Source of the DNA: Schmidtea nova
Lineage: Eukaryota
Assembly (NCBI GenBank): GCA_044892505.1
Contig: CM097882.1
Coordinates: 545,290,001-545,354,000, forward strand
DNA: 64,000 nt
Direction: 5' to 3'
Under the pieces are notes generated by a model. It did not search any database, was not told the DNA's origin, and saw only the letters and a program-made list of their open reading frames with translations. Positions 43,102 through 64,000 of the stretch are shown one piece after another (position 1 is the stretch's first letter; each line of letters begins with the position of its first letter). The translations under genes were made by a program, and so were the position numbers.

Positions 43102-43119
43102 TGGGGGCTCAGCCGGGAT
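43102..43119 (+). promoter_or_regulatory. Primer-binding site, tRNA-Pro type
   Basis: TGGGGGCTCAGCCGGGAT matches the MLV tRNA-Pro PBS TGGGGGCTCGTCCGGGAT at 16/18 positions. Confidence 0.8.
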
Positions 43120-43483
43120 GAAAATGGTTTTTGTGCGAAAAATTGAATCCAATAATAACTAGGAGTTTTAAAGTACCCCTCAACCGAAAATTTAATTGAA
43201 TTTATGTTAGAAGTGAAAACAATATCAACAGAGAATTTTTGAAGAAACAATGAGTTAATAAATATAATAACAGACGATTAATAATTGACATTAAAATAAA
43301 ATAAATAAACATAAATAAATATGTCGGGACGACAATTTGACGAACCAGGTTTAACATCAGAAAACGAAATGTACCACTACTTTTGACCGACACAAATCAA
43401 ACAAATAGAGAAACAAGATATGGAAATTTTTATTTTTTAACAAATAAAGCAGCAAACATATTAACAATATCAATTATTTAGCA

Positions 43484-43945
43484 ATGAACGATAAATTAAA
43501 AGAAACAGAAGAATTCTTAAACACGGAAAACAAAACATACGATGAATTATGCGAGAAAATAAGTCGAATAAGAGAATCCGGATTCACAGAACCCATGACA
43601 CAAACCGAAGAGACAACAGAGCTGATAAAAATATTGGAAAGAGTAGACAAAATAGATATAACAACTAGATACAAGTGGTACCGAACGAGATTAGAAAATG
43701 CTGATGTAAACATAAAATGCAGACAGTTAGAACAACAATTAACTCCAACATACCACAAGTGGACGATACAAGGAACTGAGACAGCTAAGAAATTTAAACT
43801 GTGCTACATATGTCGAGGAAGAGAGAATAAAATCATGTTTTTACCATGTGGACATTTCCGGTTTTGTAGAATCTGTGCAGCCAATTGCGACAAATGCCCG
43901 ATGTGCAATCTCGAAATAGACGAAAGAATTATTGTGTATTTATAA
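43484..43945 (+). CDS. Coiled coil plus C-terminal IAP/MDM2-type RING protein, 153 aa
   Basis: CYICRGRENKIMFLPCGHFRFCRICAANCDKCPMCNLEIDERIIVYL* is the typical extreme C-terminal RING of IAP-like E3 ligases; no BIR domain seen. Confidence 0.85.
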   Translation: MNDKLKETEEFLNTENKTYDELCEKISRIRESGFTEPMTQTEETTELIKILERVDKIDITTRYKWYRTRLENADVNIKCRQLEQQLTPTYHKWTIQGTETAKKFKLCYICRGRENKIMFLPCGHFRFCRICAANCDKCPMCNLEIDERIIVYL

Positions 43946-43985
43946 TAAATTTTGAAATTGAATAATATGATTTGTGATAAAGGAT

Positions 43986-44160
43986 AATGAGAATTAATAT
44001 GATAATTCATAATGAGAATTAATATGAGAATTCATAATGAGAATTAATATGATAATTCATAATGAGAATTAATATGAGAATTCGTAATAAGAATTAATAT
44101 GAGAATTCATAATGAGAATTAATATGATAATTGATAATGAGAATTAATAATGAGAATTTA
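43986..44160. repeat. 25-bp tandem repeat, ~6.5 copies
   Basis: Unit AATGAGAATTAATATGA(T/G)AATTCAT. Confidence 0.9.
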
Positions 44161-44517
44161 AAATGAGAGTTGATAATGGCAATGACAGAGATCATAATAA
44201 CAATTGATATGTATAAATAATTTTTGAGCTGCTCACGAGTAGTCCGTTAAGCACCCATTGGGAGGAACCAACTGATCAACTTACCCGAGATGTATAGAAA
44301 GGGGCCCATCGCGGAAATTGGAAAGCTTTTGTGATGTGACTGATCACCACATCTTGCATTAGTAGACCAATGCGATCTTTTTGTATATTTTGGTTGGGGT
44401 GAAAGGTAGGGAAAATTCAATGAGGTTTAAGTGCGCGCAGAAAATATAAATAAAAAGAGAGAACAGAAAACTGATCAGTAAGAAATAAAGAGAATAAGAG
44501 TTAATATGATAACTAAG

Positions 44518-45511
44518 AATAATAGCAACATGAGAATATGAACTCATGATTGTAGGCAACATAAGAATTTGAACCTATGATTGCAGTGAATAATAGCAAC
44601 ATGAGAATATGAACTCATGATTGTAGGCAACATAAGAATTTGAACCTATGATTGCAGTGAATAATGGTAACATGAGAATATAAACTCATGATTGTAGGCA
44701 ACATAAGAATTTGAACCTATGATTGCAGTGAATAATAGCAACATGAGAATATGAACTCATGATTGTAGGCAACATAAGAATTTGAACCTATGATTGCAGT
44801 GAATAATAGCAACATGAGAATATGAACTCATGATTGTAGGCAACATAAGAATTTGAACCTATGATTGCAGTGAATAATAGCAACATGAATATATGAACTC
44901 ATGATTGTAGGCAACATAAGAATTTGAACCTATGATTGCAGTGAATAATAGCAACATGAGAATATGAACTCATGATTGTAGGCAACATAAGAATTTGAAC
45001 CTATGATTGCAGTGAATAATAGCAACATGAGAATATGAACTCATGATTGTAGGCAACATAAGAATTTGAACCTATGATTGCAGTGAATAATAGCAACATG
45101 AGAATATGAACTCATGATTGTAGGCAACATAAGAATTTGAACCTATGATTGCAGTGAATAATAGCAACATGAGAATATGAACTCATGATTGTAGGCAACA
45201 TAAGAATTTGAACCTATGATTGCAGTGAATAATAGCAACATGAGAATATGAACTCATGATTGTAGGCAACATAAGAATTTGAACCTATGATTGCAGTGAA
45301 TAATAGCAACATGAGAATATGAACTCATGATTGTAGGCAACATAAGAATTTGAACCTATGATTGCAGTGAATAATAGCAACATGAGAATATGAACTCATG
45401 ATTGTAGGCAACATAAGAATTTGAACCTATGATTGCAGTGAATAATGGTAACATGAGAATATGAACTCATGATTGTTGGCAACATAAGGAATGTGAACCT
45501 ATGATTGCAAT
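44518..45511. repeat. 71-bp tandem array, ~14 nearly identical copies, decaying to ~45690
   Basis: Unit AATAATAGCAACATGAGAATATGAACTCATGATTGTAGGCAACATAAGAATTTGAACCTATGATTGCAGTG. Confidence 0.95.
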
Positions 45512-46246
45512 AGTGATAGCAACAGAAGGAATATGAACCTTTGATTGCACTGTGGATAACAACATAAGGAATATGAACCTATGGTTGTAATTGTGGAAAT
45601 TTAGTAAATTTAGCAACCTAAGGAATTTGAACCCAGGTTTGCAATTATGTGAAATTAAATGACAACGAAAGGAATATGAACCTAGAGTTGAAGTCGTCGA
45701 CGACGTGAGAATAGTGAACATTAGAGTTTGAGTAATAAAAGTAAAGATGATTAAGAAAACTAGAGATACAGTATGCATACAAGTAGAAATAAGAATAGGA
45801 GAAATTAGAGTTGACTAGAAATAGTGAGAATAGTGAGTAATGATGAGAAATTAGAGATGACCAAGGAAAATTGGTAGAAATAGTGAGAATAATGAGTAAT
45901 GATGATACAATGAATAGTAATAAAATGATAAAACTGAGTCAGGAGAACTCAAGGGAATTAAAGCGTTTGAGCGACAAATTTATTTGGGAGACTGAGGGAA
46001 AAGTAATGAATTTATTTGATAACGATAGATAATTATTACGACCATATAGATAATTGTTACCAGTGAATAGATGATTTAAATAGACTTAAATAAAGGGGAA
46101 ACCGGGAATGGGGAAACAATGGAAACCCAATAATGAGGAATAAAAGCGCAACGATAACAATGATGTATCGTTGAAGTGACTTTTTAATTTAGATATACGG
46201 AACAGAACAAGTCAAACCAACCAACCAATCAATCATAATACGATAA

Positions 46247-48426
46247 CAGAGAAACAGAAAAATTGATAAATTAAAGAAAAGTAAACCGAGATCAAGAACA
46301 GCTAAAAATCAAGAAGTCAATAATTCACAGAGAAACAAATTGAGATCAAGAGCAGTTAGTGCTAGAACCCAAAAAGTTGATAAATCACAGAGAAGTAAAT
46401 CGAAACAAAGAGCAACCAGTGTTACAAAGAAAACAAATCCTAAAGGAAGTAAATCAAGAAGAGTAATAGTAGAAAAGTCAAAAATCGAAAACAGTAAATT
46501 AACAAAAACTAACGGAAGTGAAACAGAAGAAAGTGCAAGTGAATCCCACGATAATTATAATAATACGGAAGCATCAGATAACGAGTCAATAAACACAGAA
46601 GAAGTAGAAGCAGAAATTGATAATAATTCAAACGAAACGAATAACGAGCATACTAGTGAAACAAGAGGAAACGAGAGTAAAACGACACAAGACAGCGGAA
46701 TTGAAATGAACGAACATAAAGAAGAAATCAAAGATAAATTTACGGGAGAACCATTTAATGGAGATGCCAGCAAGTTAGAAACATTTTTAAAAGAATTTGG
46801 TATATTTGTAGAAGTATGTAAATGGAAACCAGAAACGATAAGAAGCAGAATTCAGTTATATTTAAAAGACAGTGCTATAGACTTATATTTAGAAGCTAAA
46901 AATTCAGATGATCAACTCGATAGTTGGGAAAAGATAAAGAATTTTTTCCAGCAAACGTTCGGAATAAATAAAGTATTAAATGAAGCATTTACAGAATTTT
47001 CAATGAGGAAACAAAAAGTTAATGAATCAAATGCAGTATATGCAAGTGAATTAAAGAAATTGGCTAAATTAGCATTTAATCAAAATAGTCCAATGAGTCC
47101 AGAATTAATGGCAGCAATTTTTGTGGGGGGATTGAGAAGACCCGATATAAGAGCACAAGTTGGATGCCAAGGTTGTAAAACAATAGATGAAGCGTTGGAA
47201 ATCGCCAACAGATTTGAATTACATATGATCGGAAGTGAAGGAAGAATTTACTTAGCAATGGATACGACACAAAATGAACAAGCAATAAAGATAAATAACC
47301 ATATTCCGAATTCACAGCAATTAAATCGACCACCACCTCAAAGGAGAAATGAAGGAAACAAAATACAAAATTACAGAAACCAAAATAATTATAGTACGCA
47401 GGACAGACAAAGCAATGTCAAACCTGTGGAAAGTCAGGACATTGGCAACAAGAATGTTTCGCGAATTTAAATTGTAAAAAGTGTGGAATAAAAGGACATG
47501 CGGAAAATAGATGTTACCAAAGATCATGTTATAACTGTGGACAACCAGGTCATATGGCGAAGAATTGCCAGCAACAAAACAACCAACAAAGGAATTGGTC
47601 GAACAACGGAAATCGACAAAATTATGTGAATCAACAGAATAACGGAAACCGTCAGAATTATGGAAATCAACAGAGTAGTTATAATCAGAACAAAAATGCC
47701 AACAAAGAAATACTTTTATTACAAGAAGTTCAAAGATTGACAGAGTTAATAAATAATACACCGAGAGGAAATCAACAAACGAATCAACAACAAATGAATA
47801 TGATGAGAAAAGTGGAAAGTGAAAATGAACGATTAAATCGAGAAAGTCAAGCACGACATGCTCAAGAATGGGCAAGAATACAAAGAGAAGACGAACAGAA
47901 ACGACAAGAAAGAGAACGACAACCATTGAGAATTAATATGATGAGAGCAACGAATCAAACAAGAGATAACAAAGAAGATATTGAACCAGAAACAAACCAG
48001 ATAAACCCAAATCCGGAAGATGAAGAAAACCAAAAAGAAATAGTACAAGAAAACGAAGAAGTTATTAAACAAAAAAGGATGTTGGTAGTCATGCCAAACG
48101 ATCATGTATTTCGATTTGAATATGATGAAAAAGAAGAAGTAGAAGTATTAATTAATAAAATAAACAAGACGATTCCGGGAATGACGAAACTACCCCGAGA
48201 AGCATTTTTACAGACAGAAGACGAAGCAGCAATAAAATTGAAACCAACCGACATATGGAAAGATTTAGGAGTACCAATGAATAAAATGAAAGTCACAGTT
48301 ATCCAAGAAATAGAAGAAAATAACGATGAAGAGAAATCAAAACCAGTAACAAAAGTCAAAAGTAGAGCATTGAAGATATTTGAAGAGAGAATCAAACAAA
48401 GAAGAGCAATGGAAATAGAAAAATGA
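46247..48426 (+). CDS. Gag (capsid-like domain, 3 CCHC knuckles, Q/N-rich region, Ubl-like domain); -1 frame change at ~47395-47415
   Basis: EPFNGDASKLETFL...YLKDSAIDLY...RKQKVNES...FVGGL is retrotransposon gag. The next frame gives CQTCGKSGHWQQEC, CKKCGIKGHAENRC and CYNCGQPGHMAKNC. The frame is open from 46247; first ATG at 46706. Confidence 0.85.
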
Positions 48427-49843
48427 AGAGGCCAAATAAAAGAACCAGAAAACAATGACAAAAAAGAAGAGATACCACCAAAAAATGTACCAGATAAAGT
48501 AGAACAGACAGCACATATAAACATGTTAAGAAACTTAACTAGAGAATTTTCAGATGTAGAAAGTGACAGTGATGTCAGTAGTTTAGCAGGAGATATGCTA
48601 AAAGAACCAGAAAATGAAGACAACCAGATAGAAGTAACAAAGACGCCAGAGAATATACAAATAAAAGAAGATGAAATTCAGAAACTATTAGTTAATGCGT
48701 TAGAAGTGATTTATAACGAAGAATTTATTGATAAGAAGCGATATCGAAAATTTATAAGAGCAGTATTCCGAACGAACTATAAAGAACGGTTACAAAGTCG
48801 TGAAGTAGAGATATTATCAGGATACGTCGTCAAACTATTAGAAGAACCACTCCACGAATACATAATTTTAATAGAAATAAACGAATGTTCACCAAGAATT
48901 TTATCGATGGGTAGAAGACAGATTGGGAAGTTCGTATAAAAACAAATTTATATATTCAGGAAACGAACTTGTAAGACGAGCAACGCATTTGGTAGAAACA
49001 GGCATATGGCCAGGAGAGATAACAACATTATCAATAGGTGACAATAAGAAAGAGGAGAATCTACAAGAAATCGCAAAGGAAGCAAATATGTGTTTTGAGA
49101 TGAGAATTAAACCTCAGTTAGTGGAAAGGAAAGAAAGAATTCTTAGAGAAAATTTAAATTCACTAATAGAACAAATTATTCAACAAATCGACAAGAATAG
49201 AGAAGAGTTAACGAAAACTGAATATGAGAAATTAAAACAATGCATCGAAAATATACGAGATACCAGCCATACGAGATATTCGCCGTACAAGACTTGGAAA
49301 GTGATCGCGAAAATGGGAAAAGCGATGTTTAAACGAGGAGAAATAGGAGATTTAAAAATCAAAGTGAAATTACCAAACGAGGACACAAAAGAAATTGAAG
49401 TAATCGCGGATTGCACAATAGAAGAATTAGTTGATGTTATCAATGAAACTTTATTACAACGGGAAAAAGAAGACGAATTGGTAGACGATATCATCATAAA
49501 ATATAATGAACACGTACTAGGGGATCATGATGAGAGACGATTATATAAAATTGGCATATGGGATAATTACCAAACAATTCATGTTATCAGAATGGATGAT
49601 ACACCAAGAGAAACACCAAAAGACGAAAAAAGGAGACAAGAACGTCGAAGAGAAGCGATGCACAAACTAAGACAAATAATAGAGATTTATCGAAGATGAC
49701 AGATACAGCCAGAATGGGAAAATGTATTAGGAGAATTAAACTTCAACGAACGCCGATTAACACCAGTAGAGAAACACTGGGATGTTAAAGAGAAATGCTG
49801 GAAAGCAAAAGGAGGTATATATGAAGAGGAATTTAGACCAGAA
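48427..49843 (+). CDS. Continuation of the Gag-extension polyprotein, broken by TGA 48424-26, a +1 shift at ~48881-48936 and TGA 49697-99; contains a ubiquitin-like domain
   Basis: Frames stay open directly past both TGAs. LKIKVKLPNEDTKEIEV...TIEELVDVINE...TIHVIR resembles the ubiquitin fold. Confidence 0.65.
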
Positions 49844-52800
49844 ATGGAAGACAAATATGAACCAGAAATTGGAAGAGTTTGTATGGTGATAAGAAAAGTC
49901 ATGCCAACAGATTTAGATGGACCAGAAACCGCAGCAATATGGTTAGAAACGCAAAGACGAAAAGCTGACGAACTTATTGAATTACTAAAAGGAAATGTAC
50001 AAGGAAAAAGGCGAACGATCAAAGGATTAGCCGAATTTTTTGTAGCAGGCGGTGAAGATATAATCAGTTTAAGAAAAGTAGCAAAGGCAGTAACAGAATA
50101 TAAACGAGTTAACGAGTGGTGCCCAGAACAGTTAGACAATGTAATCAAGAAATGGAGAAACCAAGAAAACTCCCAAGAACCACCGCAGAAAATACATTTA
50201 AGGATAATATATCCAGATCGAGAAAAAGAAGAGCTTTGGGTAAGATTAACTGAAAAGATTCGAGATGTTAAAAAGAGATTAAAATATGAACCACCATTTC
50301 ATCTACAACATCAAGGACGATCACTAGAAAACGATATGGAAATTTGGATAACGCCAGCACAGTTAGAACTGGCGAATACGTTAACAGTAGACGCAATAGC
50401 AAATCAACCATTAAAACTTAAAGAGAAAAGAGTAAAAGAAAGTGGAGATACTCAGAATCTAAAGAAGACGATGCAGATAAAGCCAGGAACAAGTGCAATA
50501 CAGTATGAAACATCATCAATAAAAATCCAAGAAAGAACTCAACCACAACCATACGATACAGAAGAAATATTAACAGACAGCGATGATATGCTAGAAGAAT
50601 TAGCAAAATTGACAAAAGAAAAAGGCAATAATATTTTCGAAAGAGTACAAGAGTTACCCACAACGTCAAAAGCAATCAATACCCAAGATGAAGTTGAGCA
50701 AGAAATAGAGATAGAAGAAGTGAACGAAATCTCTGAAGAAGAAGCAAGAGGAGCAAATACAGAAAACGAACGATTAACACAAGAAATGGAAAAATGGTGG
50801 GAACAGAGAAATAACGAACCAAGAGATGTTACAGAAGAAACTGGACGAGAAACCAGATTGATTGAAACAGGTACAACAATGGATAAACGACCTAGAGGTA
50901 GACCAAAGACAGATCCAGCCAATGTAATCAACAAAACCAAAGAGGAAAGGAGACAAGAGAAATGGGAAGTATGTTTAAAGAAACTCAACAAAATAGCAGA
51001 AGCAAAAGACCAGGAAATAACGCAAAAATGTCAAGGTGAAGGATGGATATCAAAAACACTAATGGAAATATTGGCGATAATTGATCCAGAATTGAAAAAA
51101 TGGTGGAGAATAAACGAAATAAGCGACAAGGCTAAAGCATTACATAGCGCAATCGCACCAATCTTACCAGAACTGATAAAAGAGAAGACAAAATCAAGCC
51201 ATTTAGATTGGCAAGGGACCACAACGTTGATAAAGAGGTTAACTGAAGATGCAGAAAATGATAATAAATATGTGATAGCAATTGCGTATACAATTTATAA
51301 CTTATTAACATTGAGTAGAGGTAATCCAAAATCTACGGCATTAGAGAAATATATCAAAAATACGGCAAATATCATAGCAAAAGAAATAGAACCATACGTC
51401 ATCAGTAAAGGAGGATGGGAAACATTTGCTAAAACGAATCAAAGAAACAGTCAAGCAAAGAATATGAAAAAGAAATTTGAAGAAATTTTAGGAGAATTAG
51501 AAAAAGAAAAGTCAGGAACAGGAGGTGGAAAATCTTCACTAAACCTGAATTCAATCATAATGATGATATTAATATGGCTAATTAGCGTTGAAGGAGCAAC
51601 GGCGTTCGAAGTATTTGATTGCGACCAGATGGCATTAGGAGAAAAATATTCATTGAGAGGAACAGAACAATGCAAAGATGCAACTCCAACAGAATTAAAA
51701 GTATTACATAGTAAACAAATATATCACGTATATCAGGAAGCCGACTTAATAAAGACAACAGTTAATGAGTGTAAAATATATAAAACAAGATTTGCTTTTT
51801 ATTGTGGACATCGCCACTACTCTGCAATCGTAATGCCAGGAACGGAAAGAGAAGCGATAATGTTACAAGGAGAAGATTGCAATAAATTGTTTAAACATGG
51901 AGAAGTCGAAACAAGAGATCGAATAAAGATAAGAGGAAAAGCTGGAGTAATACTACAACAAACATATTATGTAGCAGGAGCTATCACAGGAGGAGAAGGT
52001 TACTGTCAAGGAGCAACATATCCAATATTTGGAGTACCAGCAACTAACATGGTAGTAATAGACACGTATACGGTAGAATTAAAAGCGTATGAAGCATATT
52101 TTGACCCAGCAACAGGAGAAATGAAGACGTTATCAATGTGCAAAATTGAAGCCAGTACTTGTCAAACCGGTATGTCAACTTTAACGTATAGAGCAAGAGC
52201 AAATGAATGCCAATTACAATTATTAAAGGAAGCAGAGTTCGACGAGGTACAAGGAAAAATCTTTCAGGAAGAAGATGATGATGAAGTAGCAAGAGGAAAA
52301 CGTCTACAGGAGACAGTAAAAGGAGAGAAACCGTTCACCACTAAAGTACAAGAAAAAGAGGTAAGGATGAGAGAGACGCCAACAGTATTGGTTACATCAA
52401 ACGCAAATATAGGAATGAGGTTTGTAAAAGGAAAACCGGCATTAAAATGTGGTGTTTCTATGTTAGAAACAAATTACCCAGGTATTTATGTATCAAGACA
52501 AGCAGCACCAAATGCAAAACCCAAGATAGACACTACAGACATCAAATTGCACGTATATTTAAATAACAAATTGGATTTTTTATTTCATAAAGGTCAAGCA
52601 TCAATGGAGAAAATATACTACGATCTCATTAACAACGATTGTATATTGAACAGAGAAATATTAAAGACGAAATTAGCAGTAGCAATCACAAACCCGGACA
52701 GTGCTATGCCATTATTACCACTTAACGAAGGTCATTTTGGAAGAGTAGTTGGAGAAGTTATGTATGTATATATATGCCAAAAGACACAAGCAAACCTAGC

Positions 52801-55800
52801 AACAACGACCAGAATACGACAAGGACAATGTACCAACGAATTGGAAATTGAATATAAAGGGAAAATAAGATATGTACAACCAGTGACAAGAATCATTAAC
52901 CCAGTTAGTTTTGAACCAAACCCTTTCAATTGTAGTAATGCATACGGACCGTTATATCAGAAACCAGACGGAAATTGGGTCATGTTTCCGTCAAGATCAG
53001 AAGTACAACCACCTAGAGAATTTGAATTGATGCAACTTTCAAAAGGACGAAAATTTTCCAATATAGATGTAAATAATGGAGGAATTTACAGTGCAAAAGA
53101 TCTCGAAGCAGCACGACAAAATATATTATTTCCAGCTAGGAGAGAAGCAGTATTATCTAGCATTGTAACAATAACAGGAGGAACAAGTTATCAAGGAGGA
53201 CCAAATTATGAATTATTACTGTCACCAGCACACTTTAGGAAAGCAACAGAAAATATGATGAAAGCAATGTGGGGACGATTTTTAATTTTCGGACAAATGA
53301 TGGCCGGAATACTAGGTGTAATTTTAATCATACAAATAATACGAGTGATAATCACACAAATGCTAGCATGCTTTGATATTTATAAAAGAGAAAAGAAAAT
53401 TAATTGGAAATTAATAGCAGGATTTCTACCATTTTTAGCAAAAACGATGGTGTTACATGGTCACTCCAAAGATATTCATAGAATAAAAAGATTATTAAAA
53501 ATACTGGCAAAAATGAAAGGAACAGATGAAGACGTGGGAAGAAAATTCAAAAAGATAATGGCAGATGAACAAGCAAGACTACAATTAAAAAGAGAAAGAA
53601 AAGGATTATGGGAAAGAATAAGAGGAGATAAAACTCAAGACGATTCCAGTGATGACGATGATAACAATGACGACTGTGAAGGAGGGCAAAGGTACGGAAA
53701 CCAAGCACCGCAATATAGCGACAAGAATCCAGCAGAAGCATGGAAATGTCACGCACCTCCACCAACAATGTATCAAGAACCATTACAGGTATCAGGACAC
53801 AGAGCAATGCAAATGATGCCAATGACAACTTTATATCCAATTATACCAGAAGATTATAAACTAAGGCGATGTAGAAGTATGGATCCGCAAGACGATTCAC
53901 TCACAATTGCAGTCATGTCATCAAATACAGGACCAGTATTAACTACAACTATAGAAATAAATGGAAAAGAAATAGAAGCGATGATAGATACAGGAGCAAA
54001 TATTTCGGCGATAGATATTAAATGGATACCGCAAGAACAAAGACAAGAAATTGAAAGAACAAATGTTCATGTAATAGCATGTAGCAAAGAGATAGTCGAA
54101 GTTGCAGGAAGATGGTGGGTGAAAATACGACACCAAAACATAGAAATCGAAACCTATGTAGCAGTAATACCAGCTTTAAGTGTACCATGTATAATCGGAA
54201 CGGATTTAATGCCAACACTATTTAAAGAAATAATCATCGACCTTGGAACAATGAGATTAAAGGACAGAACAGAGAAAATATGTGCCATGAAAACAAAAGT
54301 AATAAACTCGAAACAAATAATGATACCGGAAGAAAGAATCATGACGAGATCACAAACCATCAGAATAAATATGCTCAGAGCGGAAGAAATTAACACAGAT
54401 AGTCAAGTAGACAGTGAGAAAATCGATGTTGACAAAGAAATCATACGAAAAGCCAAAGAAATAAACGAAAGATGGGAAATCAGACAAGGAAAAGACGTAT
54501 TATGGGATATACGACAAATAATTAGTGATTACGCACGAGGATGCCCAACCAAACCAATCATAATAGAATTACTAAAGAAAATACCAGAGATACTCGTATT
54601 ACAAGATACAGGAGGTGCAACTGCACTACACAATGCCATAAGTTGGGGTAAAACGGAAAAGGTAAAAGAATTTTTGAAAATAGCAAAAGAAACGAATCAA
54701 AATCTAGACATTGTAAATCGAGAATTAGAAACGCCAATGATGACAGCAACACTAAGCTTAGCAGATAAAGAAATAGTAGATATGCTGATAAACGCAGAAT
54801 TCAACTGGACAGCTCGTGATAGAAGAGGAAATACAGTTTTGAATCATGCAATAATGAGTGAAAATCAAATGATACTAAAACATATAACAACCAACCTCAC
54901 ATGGGAAATCGATGAATTAATCAAAGGAGAAATTATGAAGGAAGCGATTCGGAAAGGAAACACTAAAACAATATGGAAACTAATACAATGGAAATGGCCG
55001 GATAATAAAACATGGGTATTAGATATAAACAAAGAATTTAGTGAAGGACAAAACGCGCTATTGAGATACTTATTAGAGTTTACGTGCGATCAGAGAACAA
55101 TGTTAGCACTAATGAATAGAGGAAACATAAAAATTAGTAAGAACGAAGAAGAATACAAACTAGAAGTCGAAAAGGAAGCGTTATTCAGAAAAATTTGGGT
55201 ATGGTGTCAAAAACAAATACGCAAAGACATAAGCTACAAAAATCTAAATGATTTCCAAGAAAAGTATAAGATAATAATAAAAGAATACAAGAAGCTAGTG
55301 GAGATATTAAACGATCCAGAAAAATTTAATCAAGCGATAAATCAGAAAGAAGAAAGTAAAAGGATACTCACACCATTATTCAATGCGAAGATAGATTACC
55401 AAGAAAGATTGGATGCAATACACAAAAAAGCAAAGGAACTATTACCAGAATTCAAAGATACTAAATACGCCTTAGAAATACTTGGCGCGATAGTAGAAAA
55501 GGTACACGCGTATGCGAAAGGAATATATAACGGAAACGATATAATAATTATAAAAAGAGAAATGCCAGTTGCATTTTTACTAACTAAAGAAAGAATAATG
55601 CCGATTCATAGAGCATTGAGAGCAGGAAAAGACAGTAAAGTAATCGAAATCGCAAGATTAATGCATCAATGTGGATGTGATATGAATATGATAGACGAAA
55701 AAGGAGACACCCTCATGGTATACGCAGCAAGAGCAAAAACAAAAATCAAAGTATTAGAAGAGTTATATAAAGCAGGTGCAGGATTAATCGGAAAAACTAG

Positions 55801-58579
55801 TAAAGACAACTCAATATTAGACGTGACATTATTAGGTCCAAACTGGGAAATGTTGAATTTCATTAAAACGATAACAAACCAGGAAGAGATAGACTATTTG
55901 ACAGAAACCGTAAAAGGACCAAGCGTATTGACAATGATGCAAAACATCAAATTGACAGAAGAAGTACTAAACTGGAAAATACCAAATACAAATAAACCAG
56001 CATTTAAAGTTAACAAGTTTATGGAGAAAAATCGAAATTGGTGTATCCAAAGCGCACTAATAACTTATATATGGCCCGAAATTGTAGAAATTTTCATGAG
56101 AAGAGAAGACCTGAGATTTACAAACAAGCCCAAAGAAACGGAAAAGATGGTTAAATGGAAAGAATTGATGAAAACACACCTTCAAAGTTGGATAAAAGCC
56201 AAGAAAGAAATTATACAGTATCAGTTAGACAACAAAAAGATACCCGAAGATATAGAATTCCAAGAATTCGAAGCAAGTAACTTAACATCACTATATTATG
56301 CAAAACTAATAGAAACAAGTAATGTCGAGGACGACATTTTTAACGAGCCAGGGAGAGATAATAATACTGACAATGATGATGACGATGAAGAAAACAAGGA
56401 CGACGAGAGAAATAATGACGATGATAATAATAAAAACAATGACGACGAGAGAAATAAAGACGATGATGATGAAAACAATCACGGAAATCCAGATAACCAC
56501 GAACAAACCAACAAAGAAGACGAGAATCAAGAGGGAAATACAAAGAAACAAGAATCCAAAGAACAAAGAGAAGACAACCCTAAAAACAATCATGAAAAGA
56601 AAGGAACAAGTTACAGAAGGAATCCATTATTCAGACCAGAAGTATTAATGTTCGCAATAATCATAACACTTATGGGACAATGTGAAGCAACGAAACAAGA
56701 GATATCAGTAGAAATGGAAGTACCAATACAAAAAGCATCAACACAAATAATGAATTCAAAGGAAATTGAGCAAGTATGTTGGGTCAAAGAGAACGAAATT
56801 CTCGGAGATAACAACCTATTACGATGTATAATCCCAAACCCCGATCGAAAAACTATAATAATAGACGAGATGGATATGGAAACATGGTACAGAATATGTA
56901 CAATCAGAAAACCCAAAGACGAAAAATCACACAAAACAGTTACATGCCAAGTATACAAGACACCCAAAGTCCGATACGAGTTCACCAATGGAATAGACCT
57001 TCCAGGACCATTTTATTTTAGAATAACAAGAGCACCAGCATCAAGAAAAGTCTTACAACCACCAAGAACCAAGATAACAACACCAAGTATAAGGAATACA
57101 ACGGTTAAACCAGAACCAAAAAGACGAACGAAACAAACCACAAGAGTAATCTACAATTCCAAGTTATTATGTATAGCACTTATTATGACAATACTGAAGC
57201 GATTAGAAGAAGGAATAGAAATGGATACAATGACATTAATAGACATGGAAGAAACACAAATGACAAATCAAAAATGTTGGTTTAGAAACGATGAAAAATT
57301 AGAATTAAAGGAATCAAGAGAAATTCAGAAATTGGAAGCGAGTAAAACGAACAAAGTAATCAAGATAATAAAGATAAAAACGGACAGAATTCATAAACTA
57401 TGCTTATTGGAAAAAGAGAGAAACAAGAAAGGAATAACCAATTGTAAAACATTCCAAGCAGGAAAAATAATAACGTTTGCAAGAAAAATAGGAAAAGGAA
57501 ACAAACAGAATTTCCAGAAATTAACCATAACGTTAGAAATAACGGGAATAGAACAAAACGTAAACGGAGTATGCTGGAGAAAATACGAGAAAGAAACGAA
57601 TAATCATAAATCATCACAATGTCAAACAGTCAGAGGAACAACTGCAGTACAAATAAAAAGCTTAGAAAGAAATCAAACGTATGAAATATGCCTAGTAAAG
57701 GAAAATGATCAAATAACGAAAGAAGATTTAGAATGCAGAATATACAAAGCACCGAACAGAGTAAAAACCAGTAAAACAATACGAAAGAATAAAAGACAAC
57801 AAAAACCGAAGTATACCACTACCGAAAGTCAAACAGAACCAGAGAGAAAAACCTCAGCAACACTTATACTTTGGAAATTAGATGACAAAACAGTGGAAAT
57901 ATGTTGGTCAATAATCAAGAAATACAAAGAAAGACAACCACAACAATGCGAAAAGATGAATAAAGAAGAGGAGATCAGAATTCAGAACCTACAATTGGAC
58001 AAACAATACGAAATATGCGCAATAGAAAAGGCAGATAAATTTGGAAACCAACAAGAAAAATGTGGAAACTACTATACACCGACAAATACAACGATCAAAG
58101 GAAGAATCAAGAAACTAACATTCGGAGAATTGAATCAAACAACGAAACAAATGGAAAACGAGGAAACAATAATAGATTCTTATGCCAAATGGAAACCAGA
58201 AAAAGTAATCCATGAAGTCAAAAGGAAACAACAAGAACGAAAACAATTGGAACTCAAATTAAAAGGACAATATGGACCAATGATCAATCAAAGCAAATTC
58301 ACCCAAATCAATGTTAACAAGCAAGGAAGAGAACTAATTGGAGTAGGAATACTGGCAGTATGTGCACCAGTAATAATAATACTCTCAATAATATGGCTAT
58401 GGGACATAATAAAAAAGAAACCAACCAGACAATGGCCAGATATAAAGATTATGAATTGTAAAATCAAGATACCAGAAGAAGTAAAGAAAGAATTCCAAAG
58501 AAGAACCAAAGGCAAAGAATTTTGGAAGCAGATCGAAGACGAGGAGCGACACGATGAAAAAGCAGTGATGATAGTATAG
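49844..58579 (+). CDS. 2911-aa multidomain polyprotein: Ubl-like, AT-hook, Bcl-2-like, class III envelope, retropepsin, ankyrins, FN3-like membrane protein
   Basis: Uninterrupted 8.7-kb ORF; domain motifs are listed as separate features. Confidence 0.92.
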   Translation: MEDKYEPEIGRVCMVIRKVMPTDLDGPETAAIWLETQRRKADELIELLKGNVQGKRRTIKGLAEFFVAGGEDIISLRKVAKAVTEYKRVNEWCPEQLDNVIKKWRNQENSQEPPQKIHLRIIYPDREKEELWVRLTEKIRDVKKRLKYEPPFHLQHQGRSLENDMEIWITPAQLELANTLTVDAIANQPLKLKEKRVKESGDTQNLKKTMQIKPGTSAIQYETSSIKIQERTQPQPYDTEEILTDSDDMLEELAKLTKEKGNNIFERVQELPTTSKAINTQDEVEQEIEIEEVNEISEEEARGANTENERLTQEMEKWWEQRNNEPRDVTEETGRETRLIETGTTMDKRPRGRPKTDPANVINKTKEERRQEKWEVCLKKLNKIAEAKDQEITQKCQGEGWISKTLMEILAIIDPELKKWWRINEISDKAKALHSAIAPILPELIKEKTKSSHLDWQGTTTLIKRLTEDAENDNKYVIAIAYTIYNLLTLSRGNPKSTALEKYIKNTANIIAKEIEPYVISKGGWETFAKTNQRNSQAKNMKKKFEEILGELEKEKSGTGGGKSSLNLNSIIMMILIWLISVEGATAFEVFDCDQMALGEKYSLRGTEQCKDATPTELKVLHSKQIYHVYQEADLIKTTVNECKIYKTRFAFYCGHRHYSAIVMPGTEREAIMLQGEDCNKLFKHGEVETRDRIKIRGKAGVILQQTYYVAGAITGGEGYCQGATYPIFGVPATNMVVIDTYTVELKAYEAYFDPATGEMKTLSMCKIEASTCQTGMSTLTYRARANECQLQLLKEAEFDEVQGKIFQEEDDDEVARGKRLQETVKGEKPFTTKVQEKEVRMRETPTVLVTSNANIGMRFVKGKPALKCGVSMLETNYPGIYVSRQAAPNAKPKIDTTDIKLHVYLNNKLDFLFHKGQASMEKIYYDLINNDCILNREILKTKLAVAITNPDSAMPLLPLNEGHFGRVVGEVMYVYICQKTQANLATTTRIRQGQCTNELEIEYKGKIRYVQPVTRIINPVSFEPNPFNCSNAYGPLYQKPDGNWVMFPSRSEVQPPREFELMQLSKGRKFSNIDVNNGGIYSAKDLEAARQNILFPARREAVLSSIVTITGGTSYQGGPNYELLLSPAHFRKATENMMKAMWGRFLIFGQMMAGILGVILIIQIIRVIITQMLACFDIYKREKKINWKLIAGFLPFLAKTMVLHGHSKDIHRIKRLLKILAKMKGTDEDVGRKFKKIMADEQARLQLKRERKGLWERIRGDKTQDDSSDDDDNNDDCEGGQRYGNQAPQYSDKNPAEAWKCHAPPPTMYQEPLQVSGHRAMQMMPMTTLYPIIPEDYKLRRCRSMDPQDDSLTIAVMSSNTGPVLTTTIEINGKEIEAMIDTGANISAIDIKWIPQEQRQEIERTNVHVIACSKEIVEVAGRWWVKIRHQNIEIETYVAVIPALSVPCIIGTDLMPTLFKEIIIDLGTMRLKDRTEKICAMKTKVINSKQIMIPEERIMTRSQTIRINMLRAEEINTDSQVDSEKIDVDKEIIRKAKEINERWEIRQGKDVLWDIRQIISDYARGCPTKPIIIELLKKIPEILVLQDTGGATALHNAISWGKTEKVKEFLKIAKETNQNLDIVNRELETPMMTATLSLADKEIVDMLINAEFNWTARDRRGNTVLNHAIMSENQMILKHITTNLTWEIDELIKGEIMKEAIRKGNTKTIWKLIQWKWPDNKTWVLDINKEFSEGQNALLRYLLEFTCDQRTMLALMNRGNIKISKNEEEYKLEVEKEALFRKIWVWCQKQIRKDISYKNLNDFQEKYKIIIKEYKKLVEILNDPEKFNQAINQKEESKRILTPLFNAKIDYQERLDAIHKKAKELLPEFKDTKYALEILGAIVEKVHAYAKGIYNGNDIIIIKREMPVAFLLTKERIMPIHRALRAGKDSKVIEIARLMHQCGCDMNMIDEKGDTLMVYAARAKTKIKVLEELYKAGAGLIGKTSKDNSILDVTLLGPNWEMLNFIKTITNQEEIDYLTETVKGPSVLTMMQNIKLTEEVLNWKIPNTNKPAFKVNKFMEKNRNWCIQSALITYIWPEIVEIFMRREDLRFTNKPKETEKMVKWKELMKTHLQSWIKAKKEIIQYQLDNKKIPEDIEFQEFEASNLTSLYYAKLIETSNVEDDIFNEPGRDNNTDNDDDDEENKDDERNNDDDNNKNNDDERNKDDDDENNHGNPDNHEQTNKEDENQEGNTKKQESKEQREDNPKNNHEKKGTSYRRNPLFRPEVLMFAIIITLMGQCEATKQEISVEMEVPIQKASTQIMNSKEIEQVCWVKENEILGDNNLLRCIIPNPDRKTIIIDEMDMETWYRICTIRKPKDEKSHKTVTCQVYKTPKVRYEFTNGIDLPGPFYFRITRAPASRKVLQPPRTKITTPSIRNTTVKPEPKRRTKQTTRVIYNSKLLCIALIMTILKRLEEGIEMDTMTLIDMEETQMTNQKCWFRNDEKLELKESREIQKLEASKTNKVIKIIKIKTDRIHKLCLLEKERNKKGITNCKTFQAGKIITFARKIGKGNKQNFQKLTITLEITGIEQNVNGVCWRKYEKETNNHKSSQCQTVRGTTAVQIKSLERNQTYEICLVKENDQITKEDLECRIYKAPNRVKTSKTIRKNKRQQKPKYTTTESQTEPERKTSATLILWKLDDKTVEICWSIIKKYKERQPQQCEKMNKEEEIRIQNLQLDKQYEICAIEKADKFGNQQEKCGNYYTPTNTTIKGRIKKLTFGELNQTTKQMENEETIIDSYAKWKPEKVIHEVKRKQQERKQLELKLKGQYGPMINQSKFTQINVNKQGRELIGVGILAVCAPVIIILSIIWLWDIIKKKPTRQWPDIKIMNCKIKIPEEVKKEFQRRTKGKEFWKQIEDEERHDEKAVMIV
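50990..51430 (+). other. Bcl-2-like domain within the polyprotein
   Basis: BH1-like LDWQGTTTLIK (cf. NWGRIVAL) and BH2-like YVISKGGWETF (cf. WI...GGW..F) at the usual spacing. Confidence 0.65.
51548..53460 (+). other. Envelope glycoprotein, chuvirus G / herpes gB-like (class III) type
   Basis: Internal signal SIIMMILIWLISVEGATA|FEVFDC, YSL...C, CKIYKTRFAFYCGHRHYS, YCQGATY, NNKLDFLF, C-terminal W..F.IFGQMMAGILGVILII TM and a second hydrophobic stretch. Confidence 0.8.
53930..54260 (+). other. Retroviral-type aspartic protease
   Basis: IEINGKEIEAMIDTGANISAI (DTG at 53987-95) and PCIIGTDL. Confidence 0.9.
54600..55870 (+). other. Two ankyrin-repeat clusters (~54600-54900 and ~55595-55870)
   Basis: DTGGATALHNAISWG, NRELETPMMTA, DRRGNTVLNHAI; PIHRAL, DEKGDTLMVYAA, KDNSILDVT. 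Confidence 0.8.
56639..58410 (+). other. Signal-like segment, four FN3-like repeats and a C-terminal TM
   Basis: Four units of xCW...I..L.....Y.IC.......C..Y.T, then TM LIGVGILAVCAPVIIILSIIWLW. Confidence 0.6.
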
Positions 58580-58701
58580 AGGGTGGGATATGACTGTAAA
58601 TAATATTGTAAATTACAAAGCATTACCGTATATAGTATGGGTATTAGTATTATAGAGTAGATAAAAAGAGAAAAGAGAAAAATAATAATGTATTTTAGAA
58701 A

Positions 58702-59037
58702 ATGAATGTACAAGGAGAAACAACCGAAATGACTTTGACTATGCGATGGAAAGCACAATGTGAAACGTTAGTTCGATCAATCAATGCACTACAGAATCAA
58801 TTGGTAGAGAAGCAAAATATATTAGCAGATTGTTACAACAATATTTTTGAACAGTTACATAAAATAGAAGAGCAACAGAGAATAATAACAGAACTGACAA
58901 GAGAGAATCAGAGATTGAGACAAACAGTGGAAATGAATCAACTATCAAGAAGAGAAGAATCAGAAGGTCAATGGCTAGATTGGGTAATAAATGGATTAGA
59001 GAATGGTATGGAACCAGATTCAACAAGCGAACCATAG
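58702..59037 (+). CDS. Orphan coiled-coil protein, 111 aa
   Basis: Intact ORF in the element's sense orientation, heptad pattern, TTTTAG before the ATG. Confidence 0.6.
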   Translation: MNVQGETTEMTLTMRWKAQCETLVRSINALQNQLVEKQNILADCYNNIFEQLHKIEEQQRIITELTRENQRLRQTVEMNQLSRREESEGQWLDWVINGLENGMEPDSTSEP

Positions 59038-59134
59038 TCAAATTGTAGCGGAAAATTGTATATATGTAAAAATAAAACTCTAGAGAAATCAAAAAACAAA
59101 GAACAAATCAATGTATGTATATATTATTGTAGAA

Positions 59135-60490
59135 ATGGATAAAGAGGAACGAGCAGTCGAGATTTTGAGAGCAGCAAACAGAAAGTGGAACAAGAGATTT
59201 GTATGTGGATATTGTAATAATTTATTACGGAAACCAAAGCAAACCACCTGTGGATGTAGATTATGTACTAGATGTGTACAAGTGTTAGAGTTGAAAAGAA
59301 TAACAGAATGTCCAGAATGTAAAGAAGGACAAATAGTGTTAGACGAAACAAGACCAGATAGAGCAACTCAGAGAGAAATCATGAGCATACTAATTGAATG
59401 TATAAATCCACCGTGCATATGGCAAGGACAAATCAGCGAAATTGAAAATCATATAGGAAATTGTGAAGAAAAGAGAAGCGAATGTGAAAAGTGTAAAGAA
59501 ACGATAATTTTAAAAGACAAAGAAAAACACAGAGATGAATGCAAAGAGGAAGAAATCGCATGTGAATATTGCGAAATTCGAGAAACAAGGAGAAAAATTG
59601 AAGAGGAACACATCAATATAAAAGAAGAAAAAATATGCGAACAGTATGTAGGAGTGTGCCCAAACAAATGTGAAATTACCGAAGAAGTGAAATTACGAGA
59701 ACATTGGGAAAAGTGTACAGAAATACCAAGAGAATGTCCTTACAACAGATATGGATGCAAAGAAAAGAAATCTCAACAAAATATGAAACAACATTTAGAA
59801 ACAGAAGCAATCAATCATATTGAAATGACAGACAGAACAATTCAGAAATTAGAAAAAGAAGTGGAATCTCATAAAATAATGATGAACCTATTATTAGAAA
59901 CGAGAGAACAATTTGAATTAACCCGAGAAAAGATGGAAAAGAAAATAATAGCCATCAAGGAATTAGCAAAAGGAATGAAAGTGCAATATAACAAGTTAAT
60001 ACAAGAAATTGATGAGAAAAAAGATTTACCAATAGCACCTTATGTGTGGAAAATAACGGATTTCCGAAATAAATTGGAAGATGCACGAAGCTTCAAGAAA
60101 ACTGCGGTAATAAGCCCACCATTTTACTTATGGAAAAACGGGGCTAAAGTGAGATTGAAAGTATATCCAAACGGAGATGGGACAAGTATTGGAAAACACG
60201 TATCGATATTTTTTGCGTTTTGCAAAGGAGAATATGACTATTTAATCGATTGGCCGATAGGAGTAGGAGTAATGATAAAAATCAGGGGTTTAAACGAAAC
60301 CATAGAAAAGAGATTCACGACAGAAAAAGGAGCAGTTATGAGTAACAGACCAACAGAAGAATGTGGATTAGCAAGTGGAGAACCACACTTTGTATTACAA
60401 AGCAAGATATGGGGATTATTGTATGAGGACACCTTATACATAGAAATGGAAAGGAACGAGAAGGCAGATAGAAAAGGATGGTTGGCGTAG
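59135..60490 (+). CDS. Full-length TRAF-like protein (RING, TRAF zinc fingers, coiled coil, MATH), 451 aa from ATG 59135, intronless
   Basis: CGYC..LLRKPKQTTCGCRLCTRC...CPEC; C...C.W.G...EIENH...C; CPYNRYGC...MKQHL; MATH YVWKITDF...SPPFY...YPNGDG...HVSIFF...GEYD..I.WP. Confidence 0.92.
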   Translation: MDKEERAVEILRAANRKWNKRFVCGYCNNLLRKPKQTTCGCRLCTRCVQVLELKRITECPECKEGQIVLDETRPDRATQREIMSILIECINPPCIWQGQISEIENHIGNCEEKRSECEKCKETIILKDKEKHRDECKEEEIACEYCEIRETRRKIEEEHINIKEEKICEQYVGVCPNKCEITEEVKLREHWEKCTEIPRECPYNRYGCKEKKSQQNMKQHLETEAINHIEMTDRTIQKLEKEVESHKIMMNLLLETREQFELTREKMEKKIIAIKELAKGMKVQYNKLIQEIDEKKDLPIAPYVWKITDFRNKLEDARSFKKTAVISPPFYLWKNGAKVRLKVYPNGDGTSIGKHVSIFFAFCKGEYDYLIDWPIGVGVMIKIRGLNETIEKRFTTEKGAVMSNRPTEECGLASGEPHFVLQSKIWGLLYEDTLYIEMERNEKADRKGWLA

Positions 60491-60595
60491 CAAGAGAAAA
60501 TGATCGTGTAAATAAACTGTACAAAACAATATAAAATGATAAATAAACAAAAATAATAAAAGTAGCCTGATTGAAAATATTTGTAATTATAGAAA

Positions 60596-61699
60596 ATGGG
60601 AAACGTCGAAATCAGTTTACAAGAAGTAACCGAACATCAAGATGAAGTTATTTGTGAGCTTTTAGAACAAATTGAAAGTTGGATCCACGCATATTACCAC
60701 AAACAAAAAGAAGTAGAAAGACAAGCCGAACAAATAACAGAAGCCAAAAGATTAAAGCAATTAAGTCAAGATAAAATAGACGAACTATATGAATTATTGG
60801 AGAAACAAAAAGAATATTATAAAAAGATGATGAAAGAACGACGAGAAGAAAAAGAGCGAGAACGAACAGAAATGGAACGGAAAATGTACTCCATTACCGA
60901 GCAAGCAAGATATTGGAAAAAAGAAGCGAAAGAATCTTATACGAAAGCAAGAGAAATAATCGAAAGAACGGCGTACAGCGATGATTGGAAATTATTTGAA
61001 GAAATCGATAAATTAAAAGAGGAATTAGAACAGAAAACCTATCAGGAAATATCGAGCAAAAAATGGAATAAAAAGAGACAACAATTTATCAGAGAGCAAG
61101 CAGGAAAAATTAAACAACTTATGCACCAGATTGAAAGATCGGAAAGAGAATTGTATTTCAGTAAACAACAATCAGATGCAAACCTCAGAGCAGGGATGCA
61201 GAAAGAGGAAGATATGAAGCGCGATATTAATGGTTATCAAGGAGTAATCACTCAAAAGAAGATAGAATTAAAGAAAACTAAAGAAAGATTAGAAGAAGCA
61301 AAACAAAGCTATGAAGAAAATTTATTAAAATTAGAAGAAGCAAAACAAAGCTATGAGGAAAATTTATTAAATTTAACCAAAGAAAATGAAGAGTTGAAAC
61401 AAAAATTGATACAAAAATTAACACCACCAAAAGAGACAGATATCACCAAAGCAGTAATAAAAATGATGGAAGAGGAAGAGAAAAACAATAAAATAACAGA
61501 ATTAGAAAAACAGATCGAAGCATTAACAGAACAATCAAACTATTTAGAATATCTGTTGGATGAAGAAATCCAATTATCACACTTCTATCGAGACGAAGTA
61601 ACAATGTGGAGAAACACGATAGTGTGGTTACCACCCCCTACAAACCAAGTGGAACCTCAAGATGAAGGTTTTCACGAACCCAATGAGTCGTTAGTATAA
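60596..61699 (+). CDS. Orphan long coiled-coil protein, 367 aa
   Basis: Intact E/K/Q-rich ORF with a 14-aa internal duplication (LEEAKQSYEENLL). Confidence 0.7.
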   Translation: MGNVEISLQEVTEHQDEVICELLEQIESWIHAYYHKQKEVERQAEQITEAKRLKQLSQDKIDELYELLEKQKEYYKKMMKERREEKERERTEMERKMYSITEQARYWKKEAKESYTKAREIIERTAYSDDWKLFEEIDKLKEELEQKTYQEISSKKWNKKRQQFIREQAGKIKQLMHQIERSERELYFSKQQSDANLRAGMQKEEDMKRDINGYQGVITQKKIELKKTKERLEEAKQSYEENLLKLEEAKQSYEENLLNLTKENEELKQKLIQKLTPPKETDITKAVIKMMEEEEKNNKITELEKQIEALTEQSNYLEYLLDEEIQLSHFYRDEVTMWRNTIVWLPPPTNQVEPQDEGFHEPNESLV

Positions 61700-61774: not shown

Positions 61775-62338
61775 ATGAAGAAGCTCACAATACTGATAAT
61801 CCTAAATGTAATCGAAATCACCCAACAAAGAGAAGACCGTGCGATATCAAAAGAAAATCTACAAGTCTTACCCGAGAAAATCTATAAAGAAATAGATGAT
61901 CTATTAAAAGAAACAGTCAAAGAAATCTCTCAAATTCAATTGTCAACAGCACCTAACCCAGTAGCAACGCAACAAACCCTGTGTAAAATCAATAACAAAT
62001 TAGAGAAGATTCGAAAAACCCTAAAAGAAAGTAAAGAAACTATAAAGAGTTTACATCGAGCAGAAATTCAATACCAAGAGAGATGGATCGTTGCGATCAT
62101 AATCGTGTTAACAATTAGTACAACAACCTGCGCAATTACCATTCTCATCGCAGTATACAGAATAAAGATCTTAAAACAAAAACAATCAATCATCAATCAA
62201 ACAACAGCACATGATGACAATGCCCGAAGACGAATGAGAAATCAGCTCAACAGAATACGAACCCAATACGAGTTACCAGTAATTCCACAGAACCAGTCCA
62301 ATCCAGTGCGAGTTATGAACTATTTATATAAACCATAA
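61775..62338 (+). CDS. Orphan predicted membrane protein, 187 aa (signal, coiled coil, TM)
   Basis: MKKLTILIILNVIEI signal-like start, coiled coil, and TM WIVAIIIVLTISTTTCAITILIAVY. Confidence 0.65.
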   Translation: MKKLTILIILNVIEITQQREDRAISKENLQVLPEKIYKEIDDLLKETVKEISQIQLSTAPNPVATQQTLCKINNKLEKIRKTLKESKETIKSLHRAEIQYQERWIVAIIIVLTISTTTCAITILIAVYRIKILKQKQSIINQTTAHDDNARRRMRNQLNRIRTQYELPVIPQNQSNPVRVMNYLYKP

Positions 62339-62500: not shown

Positions 62501-62534
62501 ATTGCGGGACGCAATTTTAGGGGTCCCCGAGTGA
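62501..62534 (+). promoter_or_regulatory. Putative plus-strand priming region before the 3' LTR
   Basis: ATTGCG-GGA-CGCAAT hairpin then TTTAGGGGTCCCCGAGTGA just before TGTTGG; a weak purine tract. Confidence 0.35.
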
Positions 62535-64000
62535 TGTTGGATCCACCATTTGGTCCACATTTAACATAAATAATAAGAATAATAAGAAATAAATAGGAAT
62601 AAATTAAATTAATGTAATTACGAGAAGTTTCAGAAAGGATGAATTAAAAAGTAATAAAAATATTAATTTAATATCAAAATTAGAAGAAAGTAAATGGAAA
62701 ATGTAAAAGTGTTAAAGAAAAAATGATATTTAATTATATTTAAATAAAAAGAAAGTAAAGCAAATAAGTAGAATTACAGAAAATAATAAAAATCAAAACA
62801 GCAAATTGCTAGCAATTGACAACAAACCAATTGATTTTAGCGTTAATAAAATTTATTATTTGTGCTGATCTGATGATCAGCTTCAAGCTGATTGGTTCAG
62901 CATTTGATCTGGTCAGTATAAATACTGATCCAGATTCAGTTAAAGTTAGATGAAATTTTTTTTCTTTCAACATTTTGTTGTATGCAAATTTTGTGAAGAC
63001 AATATTTTTGAAAAACTAAAAGGTATGAGTATTTTGTTTTTTATTATATTATGAATTCTGACATTGCCATTATAGTTATTTAAATGAAATTAATAAACCT
63101 TTCTGAATATGTTACATTCTTTTGAATATAGAATTAAGTTAAGCTTCTTCCACTGTGCAATCAGTGGAAGGAGACGACTCTATTTATCTATTTATTTATC
63201 TTTTATTGAGCTTCTTCCATCGTGTAATCGGTGGAAGGAGACAACCTTAGTGTAGTATGCTAACCATTACTTACAAGTATATATTTTTTAGAAGTAATTT
63301 TTGGGTCGAGCTTCTTCCACTGTGCAATCAGTGGAAGGAGGCGAATATATATTATTTATATACTGTAGTTATAGTAGAGATATACGTACGATTCAAGGGG
63401 CTCCGATCACCGTGCAATCGGTGAAATGGAGGCATACTGTGCCGAGTAGAATGACTGCTCCGTACAGTTGGGCCGTCCGACCGGTGTAAAGCGCCGTGAA
63501 GAGGGTAGGATTTTTATTTAACCATGATTTCTAACCTTAATTTTCACTGGATATTATAACCAGTTGAAGTTTTTATTTCATAACAGATTTGATTTTCATG
63601 AGTTTATAGTTGAGTAGAGTTTGATTTTAGTTTGAGACAGATATAGCTGTGATTTTATTAATCTGATTTTATATTTGAATTCACCGAATGTTAATCTATA
63701 TTTTTTGATTGTCACATCTGGGGTTTGTGGGCATAAAGCGGCAGATACACGGTTAAGAATTTGTACATAATACATTTTTTAAACATAACCATTTCAAAAA
63801 TCGATAATTTAATAGCGTAGTGATCTACTACGCAAGTAACATAGCAGCAATAGGCTATAGGATCAAACATTCCACATAAATGATTAAATATAATTACTTA
63901 TCCTGAACCCTGTACATAGGGCAGCAGATCTTAGTTTATTTAAATAATTTCGTATCCTGATTGCTGTACATAGCACAGGCATGAATAAATAAAATATATC
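62535..64000 (+). repeat. 3' LTR (truncated by the window end)
   Basis: 62554-64000 matches 40323-41769. The start at TGTTGG is inferred. Confidence 0.9.

Follow-up and report, generated by a model that had tools for sequence, protein, structure and literature searches.

We analysed a 64-kb window of the Schmidtea nova genome and found, on the + strand at 59135–60490, a single uninterrupted open reading frame (ORF) that runs from an ATG at 59135 to a TAG ending at 60490, encodes 451 amino acids and contains no stops or frameshifts. The features of this gene are as follows.

59119–59132, + strand: candidate splice acceptor, a T-rich stretch with an AG two bases upstream of the TRAF start codon (motif count)
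59135–60490, + strand: intronless full-length TRAF ORF (ORF call, Pfam, PDB matches, AlphaFold model)
59204–59320, + strand: C4C4 RING, Cys24 to Cys62 (alignment, weak RING profiles, PDB match)
59399–59818, + strand: five TRAF-type zinc fingers, aa 89–228 (read from sequence, Pfam, PDB match)
59807–60013, + strand: coiled coil, aa 225–293 (AlphaFold model)
60041–60451, + strand: MATH/TRAF-C domain (Pfam, PDB match, groove alignment)

A preliminary description, according to which this gene has all TRAF modules, could be confirmed for the 451-aa frame. Pfam places MATH_2 at aa 303–439 (E = 2.6e-20) and detects zf-TRAF (E = 4.8e-8); RING profiles match weakly (zf-C3HC4_4, E = 0.004). PDB matches are TRAF2, 3, 5 and 6, both for the MATH part and for the RING with the zinc fingers, the latter matching TRAF5 at E = 7e-14. 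The AlphaFold model, built from an alignment of 25 rows, has a mean pLDDT of 91.5 and a pTM of 0.50 and forms a long helix at aa 225–293. The protein combines the C-terminal coiled coil and MATH domain that characterize the TRAF domain (Pfam, PDB, model) with an N-terminal RING and an array of five zinc fingers. No second TRAF fragment was found in the whole 64-kb window.

The gene lies between two LTR copies 22.2 kb apart that are 99.586% identical over 1448 nt (four substitutions and two one-base indels), in agreement with the earlier view of a complete intronless TRAF borne by an LTR retroelement. The element is about 25 kb long and contains the following further features.

40323–43100, + strand: 5′ LTR of about 2.8 kb, with four hairpins and a 196-aa ORF inside (repeat comparison); its first ~20 nt are lost in the N gap 40190–40322 and its right end near 43100 is uncertain by about 5 nt
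43102–43119, + strand: primer-binding-site-like TGG tract directly after the 5′ LTR (sequence inspection)
43484–43945, + strand: accessory ORF of 153 aa with a C-terminal RING (Pfam, zf-C3HC4_3, E = 3.3e-11)
43950–45700, + strand: leader tandem repeats of 25, 71 and about 40 nt (repeat search)
46247–49699, + strand: gag region with CCHC knuckles, two frame changes and two in-frame TGA stops (Pfam)
49700–58579, + strand: open 2959-aa frame, polyprotein (Pfam, PDB, atlas search)
58702–59037, + strand: accessory ORF of 111 aa, coiled-coil-like (ORF list)
60596–61699, + strand: accessory ORF of 367 aa, coiled-coil-like, no match in Pfam
61775–62338, + strand: accessory ORF of 187 aa with one hydrophobic segment (ORF list)
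62530–64000, + strand: 3′ LTR, extending beyond the window end (repeat comparison)

The TGG tract resembles what we take to be a tRNA-Pro primer-binding site, and the RING of the 153-aa protein is presumably of the IAP type; Pfam gave no match to a BIR domain in this ORF. The gag region matches Retrotrans_gag (E = 1.8e-4, under the curated cut-off) and zf-CCHC (E = 5e-11) and is broken in the present copy. In the polyprotein, a Monjiviricetes-type fusion glycoprotein (env, E = 5e-68) stands in frame upstream of an aspartic protease at 53945–54217 (RVP, E = 2e-8), together with ankyrin repeats (Ank_2, E = 6e-11) and a C-terminal hydrophobic segment; a search for relatives around the protease–ankyrin part returned two unrelated ankyrin proteins and nothing else. 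Before env, a stretch at 51365–51496 is Bcl-2-like in that all 35 of its PDB matches at E ≤ 10 are Bcl-xL chains (best E = 0.44); it matched neither Pfam nor the atlas, and its model (pLDDT 49.6) gave zero fold matches. Reverse transcriptase (RT), RNase H and integrase had no Pfam match in the long + strand ORFs scanned, and a motif search for RT and integrase on the + strand of the element found none. Since pol is missing from the present copy, RT and integrase would be needed in trans. All four reading-frame breaks fall into the 3.45-kb gag region and none into the 11.9 kb of downstream ORFs, a distribution with a chance probability of about 0.003. Four ORFs follow the polyprotein, all on the + strand, and the TRAF gene is the second of these.

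Several further observations concern the same element and its surroundings. The polyprotein tail (56600–58579) may have a receptor-like arrangement, with a possible FN3-like ectodomain, a hydrophobic segment and a short tail (atlas score 0.81). At 48881–49699, a weak ubiquitin-like match (OTU1_UBXL, E = 0.043) occurs where planarian Burro elements reportedly have a Ubi2/SUMO-like domain. The 196-aa ORF inside the LTR (41935–42525) had no convincing Pfam match; its copy in the 3′ LTR would close the accessory series. Each LTR holds four related hairpins (40900–41210 and 63131–63441; RNA fold z = −6.4) that belong to no Rfam family, and Rfam over 40300–46300 gave two sub-threshold matches. Elsewhere in the window, an ORF of about 700 aa on the − strand (21655–23766) encodes an ABC transporter whose ATPase and ABC-2 membrane domains share a single open frame, and hAT-type transposase ORFs lie at 35417–37066 (−) and 10257–11687 (+), the second split by a stop. 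An inverted repeat of 432 nt (3632–4063 and 19785–20216) is 99% complementary across 15.7 kb, and 29865–30905 is a G-skewed tandem array of about 117-nt units. No tRNA genes were found in the 64-kb window.

The element shares with the giant Gypsy LTR elements Burro/GYPSM1 the long LTRs followed by a primer-binding site, tandem repeats, a CCHC gag, an env that precedes the protease in the same frame, ankyrin repeats, accessory ORFs and MATH_TRAF_C cargo, and the BCL2-like cargo of Burro may have a counterpart here in the weak Bcl-2-like stretch. It differs in length, Burro exceeding 30 kb, and in having no match to RT, RNase H and integrase among the long + strand ORFs and + strand motifs, and none to BIR. 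We therefore regard it as a probable pol-less Burro-like derivative rather than an autonomous Burro. According to PMC6431247, planarian Burro elements encode env ahead of the protease in a shared frame as well as MATH_TRAF_C, BIR, ankyrin and BCL2-like domains, and the MATH domain lies inside ORF1 in S. mediterranea Burro and in an upstream accessory ORF in a Burro-type element of Dugesia tigrina. In contrast, the TRAF described here is full-length and occupies a separate ORF downstream of the polyprotein. The presence of a TRAF in a retroelement, the headline of the preliminary description, is accordingly no novelty in itself, TRAF/MATH cargo of Burro having been described in the same source.

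We placed the element TRAF in a tree of 31 rows, which were picked partly by RING state from homologues that are 50%-identity representatives and hence a thin sampling. A branch with support 99/99 splits 11 rows, among them named fish, snake and echinoderm TRAFs, from 20 rows that include the query together with each of the four named planarian TRAFs (Dendrocoelum lacteum TRAF-2, -4 and -5 and Dugesia japonica TRAF2-like A, 27–32% identity). Deep nodes within the planarian-type TRAFs are weak (77–87 bootstrap). The query groups with P0006 and P0021 at 99/98, and P0009, P0048 and P0060 join this group in a quick tree of 50 rows (support 92); the composition of the group was flagged in both trees and can inflate these values. 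In the 31-row tree P0015 and P0037 join the element clade weakly (83/79), and none of the four named planarian TRAFs stands inside it. Four unnamed gene models in protein databases (P0009, P0021, P0048, P0060) seem to derive from elements, and P0060 matches the element polyprotein weakly (E = 0.002). Among the top matches are also P0005, P0008, P0013 and similar unnamed proteins with 6–18 tandem TRAF-like stretches.

The A content is 0.45 for the TRAF gene and 0.46 for the polyprotein, vs 0.33 for the ABC gene of the window, and the ratio of K/E/R/T to F/L/S/Y over the same RING–zinc-finger columns is 4.1–5.2 in the query and four relatives vs 1.07–2.67 in the other 20 rows. The element TRAFs form one clade with A-rich bias and without a named host paralogue, so that capture ran from host to element. 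Grouping with named triclad TRAFs and carrying Cys at ligand 4, the element TRAF fits a planarian radiation of Cys-RING TRAFs, and we read the element clade as long resident, drawn from this host radiation and common to at least one other genome. A search for homologue loci in viral contigs (env, TRAF) and metagenome contigs found none.

The RING reads CGCRLC at aa 39–44, and all eight ligand positions are Cys, as had been noted before; Cys41, encoded by 59255–59257, takes the position of a His found in most TRAFs, and the ligand set is C4C4 instead of the C3HC4 of TRAF2/3/5-type RINGs. We counted ligands in the 138 homologues under 800 aa, from a total of 154: ligand 4 is His in 86 rows, Cys in 24 (one of them a doubtful alignment), another residue in 8 and not aligned in 20. 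Cys at this ligand occurs in Dendrocoelum lacteum TRAF-2, -4 and -5, whose RINGs are all-Cys like that of the element, and in TRAF3-like proteins of the echinoderms Anneissia and Asterias. On the query side of the 99/99 branch, ligand 4 is Cys in 18 of the 20 rows and Phe in one, the remaining row being without a RING; because the echinoderm Cys rows fall across this branch, the change from His to Cys arose more than once. CNOT4 and TMEM129, characterized as E3 ligases with C4C4 RINGs in the available parts of the literature, carry the same eight-Cys zinc ligand set; they are unrelated proteins and show only that this set can support E3 activity. As the Cys RING is common to host TRAFs and C4C4 ligases are active, the change is inherited and probably harmless, and the all-Cys RING was most likely taken over from the planarian host clade, not invented in the element. 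In view of the homologues with Cys and of the C4C4 ligases, we reject a reading of the change as element-specific or inactivating. The substitution, which the preliminary description had pointed out, is a clade trait and no discovery.

The receptor-binding groove has changed further. S453, S454, S455 and F456 of TRAF2, which hold the receptor peptide (PMC6125299), align to Ala-Val-Met-Ser in the element TRAF, with Ala-Val-Met at the serine-triad positions (aa 400–402). Retained are the polar pocket K342, Y344 and D348 (TRAF2 numbering) as well as F359, F394, S414, G415 and P417, and the hydrophobic pocket is mostly intact. P0006, the nearest full-length relative, has a deletion at the equivalent of S453–F456. 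In alignment A1, position 456 is Phe or Tyr in all four named deuterostome rows; among the 14 other non-deuterostome rows extending to it, 13 have one of these residues. Planarian host TRAFs have lost the serine triad too and nearly all keep the aromatic residue at 456; TRAF4 and TRAF6 bind receptors without the triad (PMC6125299). With human TRAF2/3/5 the element protein has in common the RING, five zinc fingers, coiled coil, MATH domain and polar pocket; it differs by lacking their C3HC4 RING and their serine triad. From planarian host TRAFs it differs by A-rich bias, further erosion of the groove and its location in an LTR element. Since the serine triad for PxQx(T/E) motifs is absent, the protein is a TRAF, but one outside the TRAF1/2/3/5 binding class, and since the pockets are mostly kept but positions 453–456 read Ala-Val-Met-Ser, its receptor binding would be altered or lowered.

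We compared contigs from four runs of one study over 58500–60700 (394–831 contigs per run), which range from 99% down to under 90% alike. Their depth, hundreds for near-identical pieces vs about 4–24 for divergent ones in X1–X3, hints at many copies and does not give a copy number. Analysis was confined to the best-supported 40 of 369 substitutions and 12 of 19 indels, the rows not being phylogenetically independent. Of these 40 substitutions, 31 lie in the TRAF gene (20 synonymous, 11 replacement, 0 stops), corresponding to a pN/pS of 0.12 (no transition bias) to 0.21 (kappa 6) with p = 2e-8 to 2e-5. Neutral evolution, raised earlier as a possibility for element TRAFs, is not seen in this synonymous-biased variation. 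The neighbouring ORFs hold three changes each, 0 and 1 of them synonymous, which is too few to judge and not supportive. Of the best 12 indels, 11 map to the non-coding 15% and one to an A-run at the next ATG; some low-depth contigs carry gaps inside the TRAF gene. The gene looks conserved across copies, a sign of purifying selection, which may have taken place in autonomous relatives rather than in the present pol-less line.

A route to expression is suggested by the T-rich tract before the ATG. We scored a start codon as having an acceptor-like site when it lies 2–4 nt after an AG whose 12 preceding nt include 7 or more T. Of the six accessory ORFs, five pass this rule, namely the TRAF gene, the ORFs at 58702, 60596 and 43484 and the LTR ORF at 41935, whereas among all ATGs it is passed by 7 of 565 within the element and by 14 of 1294 in the remaining DNA (about 1%); the sixth, ORF 61775–62338, has a weaker site with 4 T in 12. 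At each of 12 threshold settings the enrichment persists (p ≤ 5e-5). We chose the rule after inspecting the four downstream spacers, of which three pass (spacer shuffles, p = 5e-4); both 5′ ORFs, which played no part in setting it, pass as well. This pattern suggests that the T-rich AG sites are 3′ splice acceptors of accessory mRNAs. We lean slightly towards (i) cis-splicing, in which the TRAF mRNA would receive its leader from the 5′ LTR in the manner of complex retroviruses and full-length genomic RNA would be better spared, and consider less likely (ii) leader trans-splicing, as in flatworm operons. The spacers between the downstream ORFs measure 75–122 nt; in flatworm operons resolved by leader trans-splicing, spacers peak near 100 nt (available parts of PMC8629364 and PMC12582326). 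In S. mediterranea, Burro1 is expressed and held down by PIWI (available part of PMC8532177).

Taken together, we consider it reasonably probable that a Burro-like giant Gypsy/Ty3 LTR lineage has long carried this gene as an accessory gene and that its product acts as a survival-signalling adaptor or ligase. A planarian host TRAF with an already all-Cys RING would have been taken up by this lineage, presumably through reverse transcription of a spliced host mRNA, and would be translated from its own spliced mRNA via the acceptor before the ATG. The protein is predicted to trimerise through coiled coil and MATH, to retain a zinc-bound RING able to recruit E2, and to feed into, or compete with, host TRAF signalling. 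Together with the element's second RING and the Bcl-2-like domain, it may help cells that express the element to survive, or dampen their response to stress, by tilting host TRAF signalling (the TAK1/p38 module in planarians, PMC7958881) towards survival. In planarians, cell death rises upon TRAF RNAi (PMC7586133). Other mobile genomes have likewise captured host TRAFs, namely iridoviruses, with ISKNV ORF111L, and giant viruses, all of them DNA viruses; ORF111L, the one tested viral TRAF, binds TRADD and promotes apoptosis (available part of PMC3352826), so the viral precedent does not give the direction of the element TRAF effect.

The eroded groove and the deletion at the same site in P0006, where other rows mostly keep Phe or Tyr, would also suit a decoy or dominant negative that binds no receptor, forms mixed trimers with host TRAFs or sequesters E2/IAP partners, and thereby blunts immune or death signalling. 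We hold this to be improbable: the polar pocket, most of the hydrophobic pocket, the RING and all five zinc fingers are kept, and host TRAFs and TRAF4/6 also do without the triad. Somewhat less probable still is a passenger gene that worked in an autonomous parent and is kept in a pol-less copy because the deletion is recent; the few differences between the LTRs, the missing pol and the broken gag would agree with it, whereas the confinement of all breaks to gag fits continued constraint downstream.

To the proposal that element TRAFs gave rise to the host TRAF expansion and spread the Cys RING we give very little credence. The many related copies in the organism, the element-like gene models in protein databases, which may add to MATH counts, and the weak joining of P0015/P0037 speak for it. 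Against it, no named host TRAF is nested in the element clade, the composition bias is absent from the 20 other rows, and Cys at ligand 4 recurs in echinoderm TRAF3-like proteins on a separate branch. The expansion cited in the preliminary description is itself in print, for the MATH/TRAF family of S. mediterranea (available part of PMC6109357); the element as its source is not borne out for full-length paralogues. Most planarian MATH/TRAF transcripts are without RING and zinc fingers in the available part of PMC7586133, in whose main text the word stems 'transpos' and 'Burro' are absent, and element copies could inflate MATH-transcript counts.

While TRAF cargo in Burro is known and the Cys RING inherited, three points would be new, namely a pol-less element with a full-length TRAF that stands alone, the indication of purifying selection on this gene and the acceptor-like sites before five of six accessory ORFs; figures or supplements of Grohme 2018 or Jurka 2007 may already show a full-length TRAF. 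By title or abstract opening, the searches showed no paper on a planarian Cys RING or on splice sites or selection of element TRAFs. Burro has already been proposed to meddle with apoptosis and ubiquitination (PMC6431247), and this published guess becomes testable through the conserved stand-alone TRAF, its altered groove and a precisely placed predicted splice junction. Work on the planarian TRAF expansion, whether by gene counts or by RNAi, may lump element cargo together with genes of the host. More tentatively, Burro-like elements could work like complex retroviruses, with about six accessory genes on their own spliced or trans-spliced mRNAs, whose pol-less copies persist by a selected survival cassette; if true, its TRAF, second RING, Bcl-2-like domain and membrane proteins would rewire the survival signalling of the host cells that carry and express these elements.
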